IMG/VR virus record: IMGVR_UViG_3300050016_000116
Coordinates: 1-64,000 of that record
Direction: 5' to 3' (one strand)
Source: a virus
Length of the DNA stretch: 64,000 nt
Part shown: positions 1-42,731 of the stretch, piece by piece
Position numbering within the stretch: position 1 is the stretch's first letter
How the letters are laid out: each line of letters opens with the position of its first letter
The notes under the pieces: generated by a model
Seen by the model: the letters and a program-made list of their open reading frames with translations, nothing else
Databases searched by the model: none
What the model was told of the DNA's origin: nothing
Position numbers and translations under genes: made by a program

Positions 1-132
1 CACTCCTCGCCGCACTCGCCGCACTCGCCGCACTCGCCGCACTCCTCGCCGCACTCGCCGCACTCGCCGCACTCGCCGCACTCGCCGCACTCCTCGCCGC
101 ACTCGCCGCACTCGCCGCACTCGCCGCCGCAC
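1..132. repeat. Tandem 9/12-bp repeat (CACTCGCCG / CACTCCTCGCCG)n
   Basis: Directly visible; encodes AAS/AARS units in the minus-strand CDS. Confidence 0.95.
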
Positions 133-565
133 TCTCATCAACTTTCTCTCCCTTCGTCAGTGGGATGAGAACATCGGCGCACTTCTTGATTGCATCCTTC
201 ACAAGAGGATGAACAATCCCGGGATTCACTTTCTCATCGGTCAGAAGCCAATGTAAGAATTGCCACCCGACTCGTGACAAGTCTGAACCGGGTTTGATTG
301 CAGTCATGAACCTGACTGGCCACGCTTTCGCTTTCCCATTGGGCAGTCCCTCGAAGATGCAATCTTCCAGACGCGCAAGCATCTGAGGGATTCCAAAGCG
401 GGATTCGTACTCGACGTGGTTGTTGGAGTGGATAGTGCAACCGACTGCACAACCCTTCCCCTTTTCCCAATACACCCCCTTGATGATCTCATCTGCTTCA
501 GCGTGTTTTCGGAGCTGTTTGATGATCTTCGTCTTCTCTGTTCGCTTCCCGTGGTACGCGATCAT
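1..565 (-). CDS. Phage hypothetical protein with C-terminal (Ala-Ala-Ser)n repeat; runs off the left window edge, so it is absent from the ORF track
   Basis: Minus-strand ATG at 565 preceded by GAGAGGT; open frame MIAYHGKRTEKTKIIKQLRKHAEADEIIKGVYWEKGKGCAVGCTIH...LARLEDCIFEGLP...DESAAASAASAAS to position 1. Confidence 0.8.
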   Translation of the reverse strand, partial: MIAYHGKRTEKTKIIKQLRKHAEADEIIKGVYWEKGKGCAVGCTIHSNNHVEYESRFGIPQMLARLEDCIFEGLPNGKAKAWPVRFMTAIKPGSDLSRVGWQFLHWLLTDEKVNPGIVHPLVKDAIKKCADVLIPLTKGEKVDESAAASAASAASAARSAASAASAASAASAARSAASAASAASAARS

Positions 566-586
566 AGTTCTACCTCTCTCCGCAAC

Positions 587-595
587 GAGTGCCGT
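587..595 (-). promoter_or_regulatory. ACGGCACTC motif, minus-strand copy
   Basis: GAGTGCCGT at 587-595, pointing toward the minus-strand gene starting at 565. Confidence 0.7.
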
Positions 596-611
596 CGTGT
601 AGACTCCGGGC

Positions 612-3236
612 ATGGCGCTCCCGGGAAAAGGTACGTTCTATCCAAGCTGCAAGATGCGGCTCACCATCCGCTTTGAGGAGTTCGGGGACGTCTCGAAGAT
701 TGCAGCTCCTCCCGCGCTAACGACCAAGGCGCTCAGTGGTCTCGGAGGGAACAGGAACACTCTACAGGTCATCGCAGATCCAGCGAACCCGGGAGCGCTC
801 CTGCTCAGTTCGAAAGGGCAGACCCAGGCGCAGCCGTCCACACAGCAGTCATCCTCTTCTGATGACCTCACCTTCGACGTCACGGTTATCCCGAAGACGT
901 TGGACTGGAGCCTGAACGGGATCCGGACCGCAGACCAAGTCACCGCCACCGTCCTCTTCACCGATCTCCCCATTGACCCGCGCACTGTCCGGTCTGTCGC
1001 GGTGGAGGTCTTCATGGGGACGGTCACCGAGGCGGACTGGAATGCAGGCATCCAGGGAAAGCGCCGTGACGGTCCCACCATCGCTGGACAAGGAGAGCCG
1101 CTCAACCTTCTCTCCGACCAGTACGTTGATGGGAATGGGGCTCAGCGCACCAACTCCCGCTTTCAAGGATGGGTCGACAAGTGGAGTGTCGACTTCAAGA
1201 AAGAGGAGTTCATCATCCACCTTGAATGCACGGACAACATACGTCTGTTCATCAACCAGGAGGCTTCCCCTTCCCACGTCATCTCGATGGCAGACCCACT
1301 CGACAAGGCAGTGGCGAACTACCTGGCGAACTTCCCCCAATTCAACGGGCTCTCCGTCCAGTACCTCCCGGTGAACACCGCTCCCCCCGTCCTGAAGAAC
1401 GTGCTCCTCAACACCGCGTTCCGCCCGAACCTTGGTCCTCAACCGACCGGGGGAGGCGCTACGACGCAGCGGATGAGTGTGTGGGACTACCTGACGGACG
1501 TGTGCCGATCCATCGGTCACTCGATTCGGATTGTTGGGACTCGGGTTGTCATCCAACCAGTTCGTTCACTCACATCGAGTGCGAGCACGCAGCGACCGGA
1601 CGATCCCTACCGCCCCAGGAACGTGGATGGGACCGACTACCCGTACCGCACGGTCATCTACGGGTGGAACGTCAAAGAGATGAAGATGTCGCGCCAGTAC
1701 GCGAAGAAGGCACCAACGAATGTGGAGGTGAGGTGCTTTCCGGGAGACACGATCGTTTCAGCCAGGGGCATCGAGCGCATCTACCGTCGTCCCTACTCGG
1801 GGATGATGGTAGCGGCCGACACGAAGGGGACCGGGACTCTCTCCGGAACCCCGAATCACCCAATACTCACCACGCGGGGGTGGGTTCCTCTTGGAGAACT
1901 CCAAGAGGGAGACCACCTTGTCGGCTGCTCTTTCGGTGAGCGGCGAAGCATCCGAGACCCATATGTAGATGCAGGACCAACCCAGCTTTCCAAGCTCTTC
2001 GCTGCGCTTTTGAATGTAGGAGCTGCGAAACGGGTTCGCACCACTGACGACGACTTCCACGGCGATGGGACGGAGACCGAGATCGACGTTGTAGATGTCG
2101 ACGGCTTGTTGGGGAACCGGCTTGAACCCGCGGGAGCGGAGCCACTTCTCCAGTCGCTTTTCTCCGAATCCAATGAGAGCTTTCGTTTTCTGAAGCGCCT
2201 TCGCGCGAGCTACGAGCGAACGGTGAACTTGGTCACGAGGAAGCTTCTTGCCGCGTACCGAGTCTTGAGCCGACTTGGCGATGTTTCGTTTTTCCTCCGT
2301 GGTCATGCGACTGAACCGCAGTTGGCTGGCATCGCAGAGTCCTCGCAACGGAACTCCGTTGCGCTTGAAGATGCGCCTGAAAGTGATCTCGGGGCGTCCT
2401 TCTACGCGCGAGATGGAAGTGATCGATTCCCCGGCGAGGTAACGTTTCACGAGGTCATCAAGATTCGGAAGTACGAGTGGTCGGGTCACGTCTACAACCT
2501 CCAGACTGCTTCTGAGTGGTACATCGCCGGGGGGATCATAACTCATAATTGTTACCAGACTGACCGCAAGGTCGTGATGGTGTCGCGCTGGCCCGCGAAC
2601 AACAAGACCTCTCCCAACGCCGGACGCCTCACGAGTCCCATCCCCGGCAACGCGCAGCCGGACAACAAGTGGACCGTGTTCAACGTCTCGGGCATCAAGG
2701 ACCAAGCGACGCTCGACACCATCGCGCAGTCCACCTACGAAGCTCTCGGACGTCAGGAGTTCGAAGTGGAGGTGGAGACGGACGATCTCACTTCCTTCGG
2801 TGGGGACAACACGGACCCGGACATCTTTGACATGACCGCGGGTGACACGTTCGAGGTCTTCACCCAGCGTGACAAGAACGAGCGCAGCTCTGTCACCTAC
2901 GCAGAGACGAAGCTCTCTGCTCTCTCACTCAACTCCGCGTACATGCAAACGCTCGGGTTCTCCGCGGAGTTCGCGAACCGCTACGCCAAGGCGTACACCA
3001 ACGCGGGCTTCCTCACGACGTTCCGACTCCGGAACATGAAGGTGCGGTGGTCGATCGAGGGAGGGGACGGAGGAGGCATCGCGTTCAGACTTCTCGGGGT
3101 GAACTACCTTGAGGTGAGGATGGACAAGAGCCTCCCTGCTGGTCAGGAGCCTGGTACGTCTGCTCCCACCGCTACTCCAGCGCTTCCTGCCAACAACCAA
3201 CCGCAGTCCACGAACCCGACGATCGAGTTTCCATGA
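612..3236 (+). CDS. Baseplate hub / late-control-D-like tail protein, intein-containing
   Basis: 874 aa, first gene of a baseplate cluster; hub-like FQGWVDKW..IHLECTD and SVWDYLTDVCRSIG segments; intein at aa 375-646. Confidence 0.65.
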   Translation: MALPGKGTFYPSCKMRLTIRFEEFGDVSKIAAPPALTTKALSGLGGNRNTLQVIADPANPGALLLSSKGQTQAQPSTQQSSSSDDLTFDVTVIPKTLDWSLNGIRTADQVTATVLFTDLPIDPRTVRSVAVEVFMGTVTEADWNAGIQGKRRDGPTIAGQGEPLNLLSDQYVDGNGAQRTNSRFQGWVDKWSVDFKKEEFIIHLECTDNIRLFINQEASPSHVISMADPLDKAVANYLANFPQFNGLSVQYLPVNTAPPVLKNVLLNTAFRPNLGPQPTGGGATTQRMSVWDYLTDVCRSIGHSIRIVGTRVVIQPVRSLTSSASTQRPDDPYRPRNVDGTDYPYRTVIYGWNVKEMKMSRQYAKKAPTNVEVRCFPGDTIVSARGIERIYRRPYSGMMVAADTKGTGTLSGTPNHPILTTRGWVPLGELQEGDHLVGCSFGERRSIRDPYVDAGPTQLSKLFAALLNVGAAKRVRTTDDDFHGDGTETEIDVVDVDGLLGNRLEPAGAEPLLQSLFSESNESFRFLKRLRASYERTVNLVTRKLLAAYRVLSRLGDVSFFLRGHATEPQLAGIAESSQRNSVALEDAPESDLGASFYARDGSDRFPGEVTFHEVIKIRKYEWSGHVYNLQTASEWYIAGGIITHNCYQTDRKVVMVSRWPANNKTSPNAGRLTSPIPGNAQPDNKWTVFNVSGIKDQATLDTIAQSTYEALGRQEFEVEVETDDLTSFGGDNTDPDIFDMTAGDTFEVFTQRDKNERSSVTYAETKLSALSLNSAYMQTLGFSAEFANRYAKAYTNAGFLTTFRLRNMKVRWSIEGGDGGGIAFRLLGVNYLEVRMDKSLPAGQEPGTSAPTATPALPANNQPQSTNPTIEFP
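1734..2549 (+). mobile_element. Intein (272 aa) in baseplate-hub-like protein
   Basis: Block A CFPGDTIV, block B GTPNHPILTTRGW, block F GHVYNLQT, block G GIITHN followed by Cys+1 (NVEVR|CYQTDRK). Confidence 0.92.
1758..2489 (-). CDS. Antisense Vsr/DUF559-like (PD-(D/E)XK) homing-endonuclease candidate nested inside the intein
   Basis: GTG at 2489 with GGAGG 8 nt upstream; HTH-like LDDLVKRYLAGESITSIS, basic linker, then GEKRLEKWLRSRG..QQAVDIYNVDLG..IAVEV..EELGKLGWSCIYIW; stop at 1758 lies within the intein. Confidence 0.75.
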   Translation of the reverse strand: MTRPLVLPNLDDLVKRYLAGESITSISRVEGRPEITFRRIFKRNGVPLRGLCDASQLRFSRMTTEEKRNIAKSAQDSVRGKKLPRDQVHRSLVARAKALQKTKALIGFGEKRLEKWLRSRGFKPVPQQAVDIYNVDLGLRPIAVEVVVSGANPFRSSYIQKRSEELGKLGWSCIYIWVSDASPLTERAADKVVSLLEFSKRNPPPRGEYWVIRGSGESPGPLRVGRYHHPRVGTTVDALDAPG

Positions 3237-4300
3237 ACCTCTCCGAGATGGACATCGCATCCCTTCGGGACCTCTTCTCGGGTCCTGGAGTGGATACGCG
3301 TTCGTGGCTGGAGTACGGGCAGGTTCAACCCGACAGCGGGGACTCGCACTCGGTCCGCTTCAACGATGAGGACGGCAACCCTCTGCCCCAGGGGGTCATG
3401 GTGGACGTGAAGCTCCAACCGGGAGGGATCATCCTTCCTTGCCGGGTTGGAGGACATCTAGCGGGCACGGGTGAGGCTGAGTATTCGCCATTCGGTCCTG
3501 GTGACGAAGTGCTTGTGGCGATTCCTTCGGGGGACGAGCGCCAGGGAGGGGTCATCATCTCCCGGCTCACGAATACCTACGACACGTTCCCGCGTCAGGT
3601 CGCTGGGCAGGATGTCACACTCAACAACGTCACCTTCAAGCGGCTCAAGACCCCCTACATCCTGGAGACAGCGGCTTCCTATCTCGTGCGCTCAGCGCTC
3701 ACGGGCGCGCAGCTCGCGATGGACGCATCGGGCAACCTCTTCTTCTCCGATGGGGAAGGGTCACTGCTCTCGATCTCGCAGAGCGTCATCACTCTCCAGA
3801 CCCCGAAGGGGGAAGCGCTTCTCCAGATCGATCCAGTCGGGTTCAGCGTCGCTCTCCAGTCGAATGCAACGAGCCTTGTGCTCGATGACGCGAACGGGTC
3901 TAACTTCCTCTCCGGCAACACCCTCTCGATCGGAACACTCGGGATCAATCCAGGGCAGCACGCGGTTACGCTCGAACAGGTGCTCGGTATCATCGCGAAC
4001 ACGATCTGCATGCTCGGGAACACTCTCGCCTTCGACCAGCTCGGACCGTACGCTTCGGCCGCGTGGAGTGCGGGCGCGCCCGCACTCCTCACCGCGATCT
4101 TTGCGGGCGTGATACCGGGCTGCGTCCTACCGACCCCCGTTGGGACGGGGGGTCTCCCAGGTGGGCTCCTCGATGCGCTCGGGTTGGCAGTGCTTCTTCC
4201 CGTTGCGCTCGGGCAACCAGATCTGCACGGTCCCGACAAGCCGATTCCCGTTCCTGCACCCTTCGCTCCCGGACTTGGGCGCGGGGGTCTGTTCATTTAG
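3233..4300 (+). CDS. Baseplate spike / gpV-like protein
   Basis: N-terminal OB-fold-like segment (PFGPGDEVLVAIPSGD..GGVIISRL) followed by beta-rich repeats; position after the hub gene. Confidence 0.65.
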   Translation: MNLSEMDIASLRDLFSGPGVDTRSWLEYGQVQPDSGDSHSVRFNDEDGNPLPQGVMVDVKLQPGGIILPCRVGGHLAGTGEAEYSPFGPGDEVLVAIPSGDERQGGVIISRLTNTYDTFPRQVAGQDVTLNNVTFKRLKTPYILETAASYLVRSALTGAQLAMDASGNLFFSDGEGSLLSISQSVITLQTPKGEALLQIDPVGFSVALQSNATSLVLDDANGSNFLSGNTLSIGTLGINPGQHAVTLEQVLGIIANTICMLGNTLAFDQLGPYASAAWSAGAPALLTAIFAGVIPGCVLPTPVGTGGLPGGLLDALGLAVLLPVALGQPDLHGPDKPIPVPAPFAPGLGRGGLFI

Positions 4301-5648: not shown

Positions 5649-5747
5649 CAGTGACGCTCTACCGCTGGTAGAGTCTGCGAATGATGGACTCAGCTACTAC
5701 CTCCACTTGGAGTGGTGAGAATCTTCATTGGGGAAAGGTATAGTCGA

Positions 5748-6917
5748 GTGGACCTCCCCTCGCGTCTCACTTTGTACAGCATTGGGCGGGACTACATCGT
5801 ATCGAGGAACACGAAGATCGACCCGGGGCAGGTCGATGTCCTCGGATCGGATGCCAACGTCTTCGTCGGTTCCAACTCCGTCATCGGTGCATCGATCGTC
5901 CGCCAGCTCGGGTACGCGGCAGCGCGGATGTTCCTCGATGGGGCGGTGGGGGACGATCTTGATCGTCTCGCGTTCGATCGCTACGGGATGACCAGGAAGG
6001 GAGCGAGCGCGGCTCTCGGTTCTGTCTCGTTCACGCGCCCTACCTTCGGAGCGGGCGGTGGAAGTCTTCTCGTAGGGACCATTCTCCAGACGCTCACGGG
6101 GGTTCAGTACATCACGACCACCGCAGCGACATTCGGACCGACCGATCTCGGGACTCCGACCGCGAACGTGCGCGCGGTCCAGGCAGGGAAGGCGTCTCAG
6201 GTCGGCATCAACTCGATCACGAAGATCATCCCATCTCCCGCTGCACCCCTCTTCGACCCGTCGATCATCGTCACTAATCCCCTCGCGACAGCAGGCGGGG
6301 AGGACACGGAGAATGACGACATCTTCCGGGCGCGCATCCGCAACTTCTGGAACACGGCGCGCCGCGGTGTCCTCTCTGCGATCGAGTTCGGCGCGACGAG
6401 TGTGCCCGGTGTCGTCTCAGCGCAGGCGTTCGAGTTCTTCACCGGGGGAGGGTTCCCAGCTCGAATCGTGGCGCTCTACATCGCGGATTCGAGCGGAGTA
6501 GCAAGTCAGGCGCTCGCAGCGCTCGTAGATGCGTCCCTTCAGGACTTCCGTGCAGCGGGCATCACTGTCCTCATCTTCACCAGTCTCCCATTCATCGTGA
6601 GCGTGCAGCTCAAGCTCGCATTCGAGACTGGCGTGGACACCATCACCCTTTCCAACACCATCCTCGCGGCGGTGGTCAGCTTCATCAACTCCATCCCCGT
6701 CAACTCTCCGCTCTACCTGAACCAACTCGGCGCAGTGCTCGCGCGGTTCGTCTCTCTCGGGCTTGTGCCTGGTGACTCGTCTGTCGTCTCTCCGGTGGGA
6801 GACGTCTTCCCGACTCCCGGTCAGACCATTCGCGCGACTCCCCAGAGCGTCACGTTGGCTCCCACGAGTACAGCTCAACCCAGGTCTCTTCTGCTCAGAG
6901 CTTCGCGGCTCATCTGA
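5748..6917 (+). CDS. Baseplate J-like protein
   Basis: FLDGAVGDDLDRLA, ASAALGSVSFTR, NPLATAGGEDTENDDIFRARI motifs. Confidence 0.88.
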   Translation: MDLPSRLTLYSIGRDYIVSRNTKIDPGQVDVLGSDANVFVGSNSVIGASIVRQLGYAAARMFLDGAVGDDLDRLAFDRYGMTRKGASAALGSVSFTRPTFGAGGGSLLVGTILQTLTGVQYITTTAATFGPTDLGTPTANVRAVQAGKASQVGINSITKIIPSPAAPLFDPSIIVTNPLATAGGEDTENDDIFRARIRNFWNTARRGVLSAIEFGATSVPGVVSAQAFEFFTGGGFPARIVALYIADSSGVASQALAALVDASLQDFRAAGITVLIFTSLPFIVSVQLKLAFETGVDTITLSNTILAAVVSFINSIPVNSPLYLNQLGAVLARFVSLGLVPGDSSVVSPVGDVFPTPGQTIRATPQSVTLAPTSTAQPRSLLLRASRLI

Positions 6918-40774: not shown

Positions 40775-41133
40775 TGCGCGGCTTCCTCTCCAAGACGTTC
40801 CAGGAACAGCTCCGGGTCTTCGACCAGGAGAAGGGGATCGATCATCGCCTGGACTTCTGGGTGGAGCAGTTCGGGGGTGGAGCCGGGGCTTGGCTCCTCT
40901 GGAACTATCGCAAGCAGATCCACAACGCGGGTGCGGTCGACTTCCAGATCCCCAGGGAGATCCCCACACCTAACTGGATGCGAGTTGCACTTGAGGCGAT
41001 CAAGAGACTCCCTTACTGGTCCGTGAATATCGTTGGAGGAACGAAGGACCCCATGAGGCGCTTCCGAGTTCGCTGGCATCGTCACGGTCACTTCAAACGC
41101 AAGCCGTCCCTACCCCCGGAGCAACTCTCATGA
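40774..41133 (+). CDS. Hypothetical protein
   Basis: Coupled 119 aa ORF. Confidence 0.55.
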   Translation: MRGFLSKTFQEQLRVFDQEKGIDHRLDFWVEQFGGGAGAWLLWNYRKQIHNAGAVDFQIPREIPTPNWMRVALEAIKRLPYWSVNIVGGTKDPMRRFRVRWHRHGHFKRKPSLPPEQLS

Positions 41134-42731
41134 CAATGGTGAATTATTCGGTTCTTGATCACGGCTACTTGGGACTAGTGGAGAGCTGGGGGAGTGACGA
41201 GCGCATCGTGGAGGCGGCGCGCATGTCGACGGGCAAGGGTTTCCTAGGGTGGGGGCCGAGCACCGTTTGCCAGTGTGGTCGGGAGGTCACTGAAGCCAAC
41301 GCGCTTGATCATCGCGAGTGCGGCTCACCCACGAAGTTCACGACGAGCCCCGGTGACGAGAAGCTCCTTCGCTACCTCTGGGAGAACAAGCACGCGACGC
41401 CATTCGAGATGGCGGGGATGACGATCGAGGTGCAGGCGCCCATCTTCGTCTTCCGGGAGTGGCACCGGCACCGAACGCAATGCCTCGTCGGCGAGACGAT
41501 GATCGCTTGCGTCTCGCCGAATGGCACGACCTATCAGCGCAGCATCAAGAACATCTTCGACCTCAAGTACGGTGGTGTCGAAGACACGCAACCGCGAACG
41601 AGGAACGGGACGAGCCGGGGTGGCACGCCCGTCAGACGAGAGGCGCGGCGGGTGGTCCCGTGGCGCAAGCGTGTTCTGCCCAACTGCCAGGCGCGCGCTC
41701 TCCGCGTGCTCAACGAGACGACGGGAGAGTTCGAGACAGCGCCGATGGCCGACGTTTGGGAGTCGGGCACGAAGCCCGTCTTCTGCGTGAAGACTGAGAC
41801 CGGGCGCACCGTCGAGGCGAGCGCTGAGCACCCGTTCTTCACGCGCGACGGCTGGAAGAAGCTCAAGGAGCTTCGCGTCGGCGATTCGCTTGCTCGCATC
41901 GGCGTCGTCGCTACGCGTGAGCGACCGCTCCCTCCGGCGCTCCGGGCCGGCATCGGCGTGTGGACATCGATGATGAGGGCTCGCCTCATTCGGCAGCCGA
42001 CGGACTTTTGTTATCTCTGCGAGACGGAGTTCAAGTTCTCGATCCTCGAACTCGACCACGTCGTGCCGGTGTCGGCGGACCTGTTGCGGGCGCTCGACGC
42101 GACGAACCTCCGCCCCATCTGCCCGCGATGCCACAAGAACAAGAGCGCTGCGGAGCAGCCCTCACGGGAGGGGATGACTCGCCGAGGCGTACGGTGGGAG
42201 CGCGTCGTCGAGGTCCGCGAAGTCGGCGACGCGCCTACCTACGACATCGAGGTCGACGGGCCGCACCACAACTTCGTCGCCAACGGGCTAGTGGTCCACA
42301 ACAGCTACAACGAGATGAGCAGTCGCTACATGCCGCTACCGGACGTGAACTACATCCCGAGTGTTGAGAGGTTGATGCTCAATTCGAAGACGAACAAGCA
42401 GGCGGGGACGGTAAAGGGCTCGGAGGAGATGACTGAGCCGAAGGCTGGGGCGGTGCGTCATGCGCTGTCGCTCCTCTACGGGGACCAGCAGCGTGCATAT
42501 GAGGAGTTCCTCAAGTGGGGCGTCCCGAAGGAGCTAGCCCGCGTCCACCTTCCCGTGGGTCGCTACTCGCGGATGCGCGCGAGCGCGAACCTGCGCAACT
42601 GGCTCGCGTTCCTCACGCTCCGGATGGACGAGAAAGCTCAGTGGGAGATCCGTCAGTACGCGAATGTAGTGGGGGAGATCATCTCTGCACAATTCCCGCG
42701 TACGTGGGCACTCTTCTCTGAGAAGCGCTGA
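41130..42731 (+). CDS. thyX: Flavin-dependent thymidylate synthase with intein
   Basis: AARMS, HATPFEM, PIFVFREWHRHRTQ|SYNEMSSRY, KELARVHLP, NLRNW..LR..AQWEIR. Confidence 0.95.
   Translation: MTMVNYSVLDHGYLGLVESWGSDERIVEAARMSTGKGFLGWGPSTVCQCGREVTEANALDHRECGSPTKFTTSPGDEKLLRYLWENKHATPFEMAGMTIEVQAPIFVFREWHRHRTQCLVGETMIACVSPNGTTYQRSIKNIFDLKYGGVEDTQPRTRNGTSRGGTPVRREARRVVPWRKRVLPNCQARALRVLNETTGEFETAPMADVWESGTKPVFCVKTETGRTVEASAEHPFFTRDGWKKLKELRVGDSLARIGVVATRERPLPPALRAGIGVWTSMMRARLIRQPTDFCYLCETEFKFSILELDHVVPVSADLLRALDATNLRPICPRCHKNKSAAEQPSREGMTRRGVRWERVVEVREVGDAPTYDIEVDGPHHNFVANGLVVHNSYNEMSSRYMPLPDVNYIPSVERLMLNSKTNKQAGTVKGSEEMTEPKAGAVRHALSLLYGDQQRAYEEFLKWGVPKELARVHLPVGRYSRMRASANLRNWLAFLTLRMDEKAQWEIRQYANVVGEIISAQFPRTWALFSEKR
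41481..42302 (+). mobile_element. Intein with in-frame HNH endonuclease in thyX
   Basis: CLVGET, ASAEHPFFT, CYLC..LDHVVP..NLRPICPRCH, TYDIEV..VVHN|S. Confidence 0.93.

Follow-up and report, generated by a model that had tools for sequence, protein, structure and literature searches.

An intein with a gene on its opposite strand

The window analysed here is a 64,000-nucleotide (nt) stretch, the first 64 kb of the IMG/VR virus record IMGVR_UViG_3300050016_000116, which totals 99,644 bp; its GC (guanine plus cytosine) content is ~60% and nearly all of its genes lie on the plus strand. Our subject is a class-1 intein of 272 amino acids (aa) housed in an 874-aa plus-strand open reading frame (ORF, 612..3236), together with a 243-aa ORF on the opposite strand that starts and stops inside the intein and that we read as the gene of a Vsr-like homing endonuclease (Table 1). 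An initial annotation, made from the sequence alone, had delimited the intein as CFPGDT...THN|C and had described the antisense ORF as uninterrupted and wholly nested; both descriptions and their coordinates proved right.

The intein is recognised in the 874-aa ORF by the Pfam family Intein_splicing (PF14890; 39.2 bits against a cut-off of 35.8, E = 8e-10), and a whole-genome scan agrees. Block B (TPNH) occupies intein residues 39-42, and C1, T39, N41, H42, N272 and C273 are invariant across 24 aligned inteins; block F of the window intein carries Asn at a position where many inteins carry Asp. Since its catalytic residues are intact and its host gene is a structural one, in the baseplate region, the intein is predicted to splice. 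A Pfam search of the sense frame gave no match to a LAGLIDADG or HNH family, as the initial annotation had also reported for the sense middle. In the AlphaFold2 (AF2) model of the intein, the Hint ends are confident, with a pLDDT (predicted local distance difference test) of 85-97 at residues 1-66 and ~235-273, residues 79-125 form one helix and two strands at pLDDT 63-88, and residues 127-231 stay below 50 and are poorly conserved in the alignment. Residues 79-125 probably complete the Hint fold, which is the simpler explanation because the recognisable Hint ends total only ~105 residues. Between the Hint halves the sense middle forms a linker that is free of stops and probably disordered.

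Table 1. Coordinates of the intein, its antisense gene and the flanking exteins in the window
Feature	Position	Strand	Remarks
N-extein	612..1733	+	374 aa; putative baseplate-hub-like late structural protein; from ORF coordinates
Class-1 intein	1734..2549	+	272 aa; Cys1 (CFPGDT), block B TPNHP, block F SGHVYNLQT, end ITHN followed by Cys+1
Antisense homing-endonuclease gene	1758..2489	-	243 aa and stop; start and stop both inside the intein; codon-aligned
Shine-Dalgarno-like GGAGG	2498..2502	-	8 nt upstream of GTG; mirror of block-F N-L-Q codons AAC CTC CAG
Helix-turn-helix DNA-binding domain	2349..2462	-	nuclease N-terminus, residues ~10-47
Vsr-like / PD-(D/E)xK nuclease domain	1887..2180	-	residues ~104-201; invariant E110, N134, D136, E145
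Antisense ORF tail	1758..1919	-	residues ~191-243, opposite the N-terminal subdomain of Hint; variation highest at sense position 3
Candidate doubly constrained island	2052..2069	both	sense DFHGDG, mirror of nuclease motif P-I/V-A-V-E-V (PIAVEV in the window)
C-extein	2550..3236	+	228 aa; first residue Cys+1

The sense and antisense frames share triplets, so that antisense codon position 3 pairs with sense position 1, and the antisense stop falls 24 nt inside the 5' end of the intein. Read on the other strand, the block-F His codon CAC becomes the nuclease start codon GTG (2487-2489), and the Shine-Dalgarno (SD)-like motif is likewise made by block-F codons; this arrangement, its 8-nt spacing included, had been noticed in the initial annotation and recurs across the family. 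In 56 of the 61 loci with a locatable block F (xGHVYNLxT) an in-frame ATG, GTG or TTG opposite the His codon opens the nuclease ORF, and GGAGG, GGAG or GAGG, made by the N-L-Q/E codons, lies upstream at the matching distance in 45 of those 56. Loci of 42-49% GC have the motif too, although CTC is not among their favoured Leu codons, and database homologues of 220-245 aa start at the equivalent aligned position. Since start and SD motif are both conserved across loci, the assignment of the start and ribosome-binding site is correct and family-wide.

Longer variants occur. In inteins of 317-335 aa (loci L006:2746-3747, L034, L053 and L057) the nuclease ORF has 47-66 additional N-terminal codons and its start still coincides with the block-F His codon, while database homologues of 280-420 aa contain two to three matched stretches, which suggests duplicated helix-turn-helix (HTH) modules.

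Opposite the nuclease gene, the codon-aligned frame stays open over 411-1551 codons in every one of the 80 related IMG/VR loci, and likewise in the cultured phages Vivi2 and BPS11Q3; the other two opposite frames are closed there, even at 40-47% GC. The nested layout is thus far beyond chance. Given the Leu and Ser codon usage of the individual phages, the nuclease cores should together contain 213 of the codons TTA, CTA and TCA, which mirror sense-strand stops (3.4 of them in the window), and none was found. Avoidance of all such codons by the nuclease gene keeps the intein contiguous.

The antisense protein and the frame under selection

A word-indexed search returned 12 proteins related to the window nuclease (E 1e-33 to 5e-9), two of them carrying the Joint Genome Institute (JGI) name 'very-short-patch-repair endonuclease', and an exhaustive search returned 1,682 homologue clusters at E <= 1e-3, with 1,121 at E <= 1e-10. 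Against cultured phages, tblastn gave 125 records with 24-33% identity across 85-95% of the protein, from phages whose hosts include Gordonia, Mycobacterium, Pseudomonas, Salmonella, Klebsiella and Vibrio. The match was antisense to an annotated MuF-like head-morphogenesis gene in both records inspected, Vivi2 (NC_031239.1, gp14) and BPS11Q3 (KX405002.1, BPS11Q3_7), in which the nuclease gene itself is unannotated. At all 128 cultured-phage tblastn places with a listed annotation, the overlying gene is of head-morphogenesis, MuF, minor-capsid or hypothetical type; the others among the 125 records, e.g. the MK5110xx Pseudomonas phages, carry only such annotations at the match, and the intein itself is annotated in a few records (Escherichia phages Snoke and fEg-Eco06).

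The HTH and Vsr/DUF559-like character that the initial annotation had read from residue patterns is supported by profile and structure comparisons. The Pfam family REase_MTES_1575 (PF18741) scores 16.7 bits on the window nuclease (E = 0.008), below its cut-off of 38.2; it is matched by 55 of 79 family representatives at E <= 0.01 (best 1.4e-10), and Pfam HTH families are matched by 24 of the 79. A search of PDB sequences with the single nuclease protein gave nothing meaningful, and the family profile matched the DUF559 structure 3hrl (E = 0.0024). With the 79 representatives as alignment, the AF2 model of the nuclease has a mean pLDDT of 91.8 and a Vsr-like fold, with values above 90 from residue 10 to ~220 and of 47-57 beyond residue 220. 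E110, D136 and E145 are invariant in the 79 representatives, and the protein is predicted to be catalytically competent from the invariant set E110/N134/D136/E145.

Openness of the antisense frame means little by itself, because codon-aligned antisense frames are easily open in GC-rich DNA. We therefore compared variation by codon position in a codon alignment of 69 distinct loci. Over nuclease residues 11-190, the share of pairs differing at antisense positions 1, 2 and 3 is 0.53, 0.45 and 0.64, and amino-acid identity is 0.35 in the antisense frame against 0.22 in the sense frame. Over residues 191-243 (nt 1758-1919) the corresponding shares are 0.58, 0.30 and 0.43, with identities of 0.34 in the antisense and 0.49 in the sense frame. 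Compared with its two orthologous inteins, the window intein has antisense identities of 42-44% and sense identities of 27-29% over the core, and in the tail the relation is inverted. Across residues 11-190 (~nt 1920-2459) it is the antisense frame that is under selection. Homology, fold, codon-position selection and an unstructured sense product together establish that the antisense ORF is a real gene.

The tail differs from the core. Its motif GEYWVIRG is the mirror of block B TPNHPILT, and by the substitution pattern sense-frame (Hint block B) selection predominates in this part, which looks like read-through and is probably not functional nuclease. The proposal that both strands must stay open over about 730 bp accordingly needs narrowing: the openness holds throughout, but functional dual coding does not extend as far, antisense selection being confined to ~nt 1920-2459, the tail being sense-dominated, and most of the sense middle needing only to be free of stops.

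One short island within the core may be an exception to this division of labour. In a per-codon table of 67 loci, nuclease codons 141-145 are near-frozen at all three positions (GCC for 58 of 62 Ala, GTG for 57 of 57 Val and GAA for 56 of 61 Glu), whereas E110, L117, G121 and Q127 are invariant residues and yet vary freely at position 3; the opposite (D)FHGDG is at least 90% conserved in the intein alignment. This table was drawn from an earlier codon alignment in which seven rows had been mis-cut past the nuclease stop; for the codon-position comparison, the rebuilt alignment of 69 loci gave unchanged conclusions. We infer that nt 2052-2069 are selected as protein on both strands.

Mobility, distribution and known counterparts

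A scan with a single extein protein found no extein relatives, and an alignment of three orthologues retrieved 30 IMG/VR loci with extein homologues. In 28 of the 30 the insert is exactly absent and reading runs through the site N[VI]EVR|[CS]Y, which is kept in all homologues; for the window extein the intein-less junction is GAGGTGAGG|TGTTACCAG. Among the 30 loci, the window intein was found at the identical position only in the contigs of L006 and L007. A quick maximum-likelihood tree of the alleles separates the three intein-bearing ones, so that three changes are needed, and it places the intein-bearing L107 as sister to the intein-less L108 (SH-aLRT 100%), their exteins sharing 78.5% nucleotide identity and the junction being exact. 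The pattern of presence and absence fits homing or precise loss.

The module is not confined to one gene. Long ORFs of the related loci are intein-bearing MuF, portal-MuF, uracil-DNA-glycosylase (UDG) or UDG-DNA polymerase A (UDG-PolA) genes with recognisable CxxxxT...HN|C boundaries, and the unit of intein plus antisense nuclease occurs in unrelated exteins, namely MuF, UDG, UDG-PolA and the hub-like protein of the window. The placements in UDG domains, whether these stand alone or are joined to family A DNA polymerases (L008:2617-4149, L025:715-4113, L058:418-5070 and L068), indicate that the intein-nuclease module has switched exteins.

A search of sequencing runs places the DNA in peat and permafrost metagenomes. 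Pfam and PHROG searches of the extein gave no match. A baseplate J-like gene (5712-6917; phrog_6, E = 3e-38) lies two genes downstream of the extein gene, and an intein-less orthologue is similar, by the language-model features of the ESM Atlas (score 0.97), to baseplate hub clusters of the Mu gp44/GpP type; as a lead only, the extein may be a baseplate-hub-like protein. Upstream, a repetitive tract at 2-256 encodes RRT/AAL-type repeats on the plus strand and, on the minus strand, the Ala/Ser-rich C-terminus of an ORF (2..613) with a weak, tape-measure-like PHROG match. The window phage has a second intein at ~41706-42302 (+), within the ThyX (Thy1) thymidylate synthase gene (41130-42731); its HNH endonuclease is encoded in frame, in the conventional way (Intein_splicing E = 4e-17; HNH E = 4e-8). 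One canonical intein and one antisense-nuclease intein are thus present in this phage.

The architecture has already been published as a preprint, and the window element is a further example of it. Gosselin, Arsenault and Gogarten (bioRxiv 10.1101/2025.01.02.630785, latest version October 2025) describe full inteins with antisense VSR-like homing endonucleases in actinophage DNA polymerase, minor capsid, terminase and thymidylate synthase genes. As described there, their elements share with ours a contiguous intein with a separate antisense nuclease ORF between the splicing blocks, a Vsr-like fold extended at the N-terminus by a further helical part, and a sense middle lacking recognisable structure. 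Our nuclease also gives tblastn matches under MuF-like minor capsid genes of the Gordonia phages Vivi2, Fosterous, Affeca and Angelicage (E 2e-26 to 4e-21); antisense orientation was verified for the Vivi2 match (E = 2e-26). The examples treated in the preprint text come from actinophage isolates, while the window phage is uncultivated and from peat, and compared with that text the window nuclease ORF overlaps the splicing blocks at both ends. The baseplate-hub-like host gene and the peat phage are new for this architecture. A term search of the preprint's main text found no mention of a start and SD motif embedded in block F, of the switch in codon-position variation, of the avoidance of stop mirrors or of a doubly constrained island, and our literature searches found no other paper on antisense homing endonucleases in phage inteins.

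Other known systems share single features. The 'fractured genes' of Dassa et al. 2009 (PMC2677866) are split inteins with a free-standing Vsr-like homing endonuclease gene between the halves; there too a separately translated Vsr-like nuclease gene lies inside the intein of a phage gene and overlaps an end of the intein coding sequence, but the window intein is contiguous. I-Bth0305I, characterised by Taylor et al. 2011 (PMC3239194; PDB 3R3P), who named the EDxHD family, has the same Vsr-like catalytic domain fold. It is encoded on the sense strand in a group I intron and has NUMOD-like N-terminal motifs, whereas the window nuclease has a resolvase/Hin-like HTH, is 16% identical to it over the aligned domain and shows no conserved His of the EDxHD kind. 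In the profile search of PDB sequences, 3r3p was not among the matches at E <= 10. As the family shows no conserved His and the sequence search did not link it to 3r3p, we have not filed the nuclease as EDxHD. Inteins with an antisense LAGLIDADG endonuclease (Gorbalenya 1998; Gogarten et al. 2002, both as cited in bioRxiv 10.1101/2025.01.02.630785) likewise place the endonuclease on the opposite strand; the nuclease family differs.

Interpretation and significance

We propose, with a probability of roughly 0.85, that this uncultivated peat phage of ~100 kb carries a mobile class-1 intein whose homing endonuclease, a 243-aa protein composed of an HTH, a helical linker and a Vsr-like domain, is encoded separately on the antisense strand in exact codon register. 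The precursor would be translated through the sense linker and then splice normally, and the nuclease would be made from an antisense transcript, recognise the intein-less allele via its HTH and cut near the insertion site; recombinational repair during co-infection would then copy the intein and the nuclease gene into the empty allele. The initial annotation had proposed a mobile intein with a separately expressed antisense nuclease, and homology, fold, codon-position statistics, conservation of the start signals and the presence and absence of the insert among exteins all agree with it; the conservation it pointed to as a check is seen in the open frame of the 80 loci, in the SD motif and in the catalytic residues, with nuclease similarity on the antisense strand and no nuclease family in the sense frame. 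It had further suggested that the nuclease may be expressed independently of the late structural host gene.

Several observations pull the other way. The window intein and its two orthologues are ~40% identical and have diverged about as much as their exteins, and for the window copy there is therefore no sign of recent homing. No His, the general base of Vsr and EDxHD nucleases, is invariant in the nuclease domain. The locus sample is biased to nested copies, since one of the two peptide patterns used for scanning mirrors intein block B. A scan for sigma-70-like promoters and terminators on both strands of 1400-3300 found none, although this consensus may not be that of the host, and the sole signal in RNA libraries is a pair of short identical contigs (1780-1935 and 3059-3206) from one metatranscriptome, strandless and possibly due to DNA carry-over. 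The first two of these points favour a vertically inherited, immobile intein whose nuclease is slowly decaying or is kept for another role, as a DNA-binding regulator or as a nuclease against host or competitor DNA, and the preprint of Gosselin et al. reports vertical-looking inheritance of some inteins with VSR-like endonucleases. We regard such immobility as unlikely, because the nuclease core is under clear protein-level selection in the 69 loci, its acidic residues are invariant, intein-bearing alleles are scattered among intein-less ones and include the close pair described above, and the unit sits in unrelated exteins.

Two further alternatives concern the coding strands. The sense middle might be a novel in-frame endonuclease or DNA-recognition domain that cooperates with the antisense protein; DFHGDG is frozen at sites that are synonymous for the nuclease, and the helix and two strands of residues 79-125 are modelled with some confidence. 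This is very improbable, as the sense frame matches no nuclease family, residues 127-231 are neither confidently modelled nor well conserved, and the structured part is more simply the rest of the Hint fold. Slightly more improbable still is that the antisense ORF is a by-product, a frame open by chance in GC-rich DNA whose conservation mirrors the sense intein. At ~60% GC, antisense stops in register would need the rare sense codons TTA, CTA or TCA, and mirror conservation is real opposite block B. The frame is nevertheless open in loci of 40-47% GC, both position-3 variation and amino-acid identity point to the antisense frame across residues 11-190, only the antisense product folds confidently, and as a known nuclease fold, and Pfam nuclease and HTH families match many of its relatives.

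Over ~540 nt of the element, one strand has to encode a folded nuclease and the opposite strand has to remain translatable as an intein linker, and in at least one short segment both appear to be constrained as protein. A broader proposal, to which we give somewhat less than even odds, is that intein and nuclease are obligately co-evolved, with the start and ribosome-binding site of the nuclease in block F and its PVAVE mirror-coded with the selected FHGDG, and that this nuclease clade may be solely nested and may have spread as a module into at least four unrelated genes, in phages whose hosts are Actinobacteria, Proteobacteria and uncultivated soil organisms. With the present element, antisense-nuclease inteins are now known from a putative virion baseplate gene and from uncultivated phages that are not actinophages. 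Gene callers overlook the nuclease gene, which lies unannotated under 'head morphogenesis' genes in more than 100 cultured phage genomes. The inteins are compact (~270 aa) and appear to be tolerant of an arbitrary stop-free linker, and the antisense nucleases are candidates for new long-site endonucleases.

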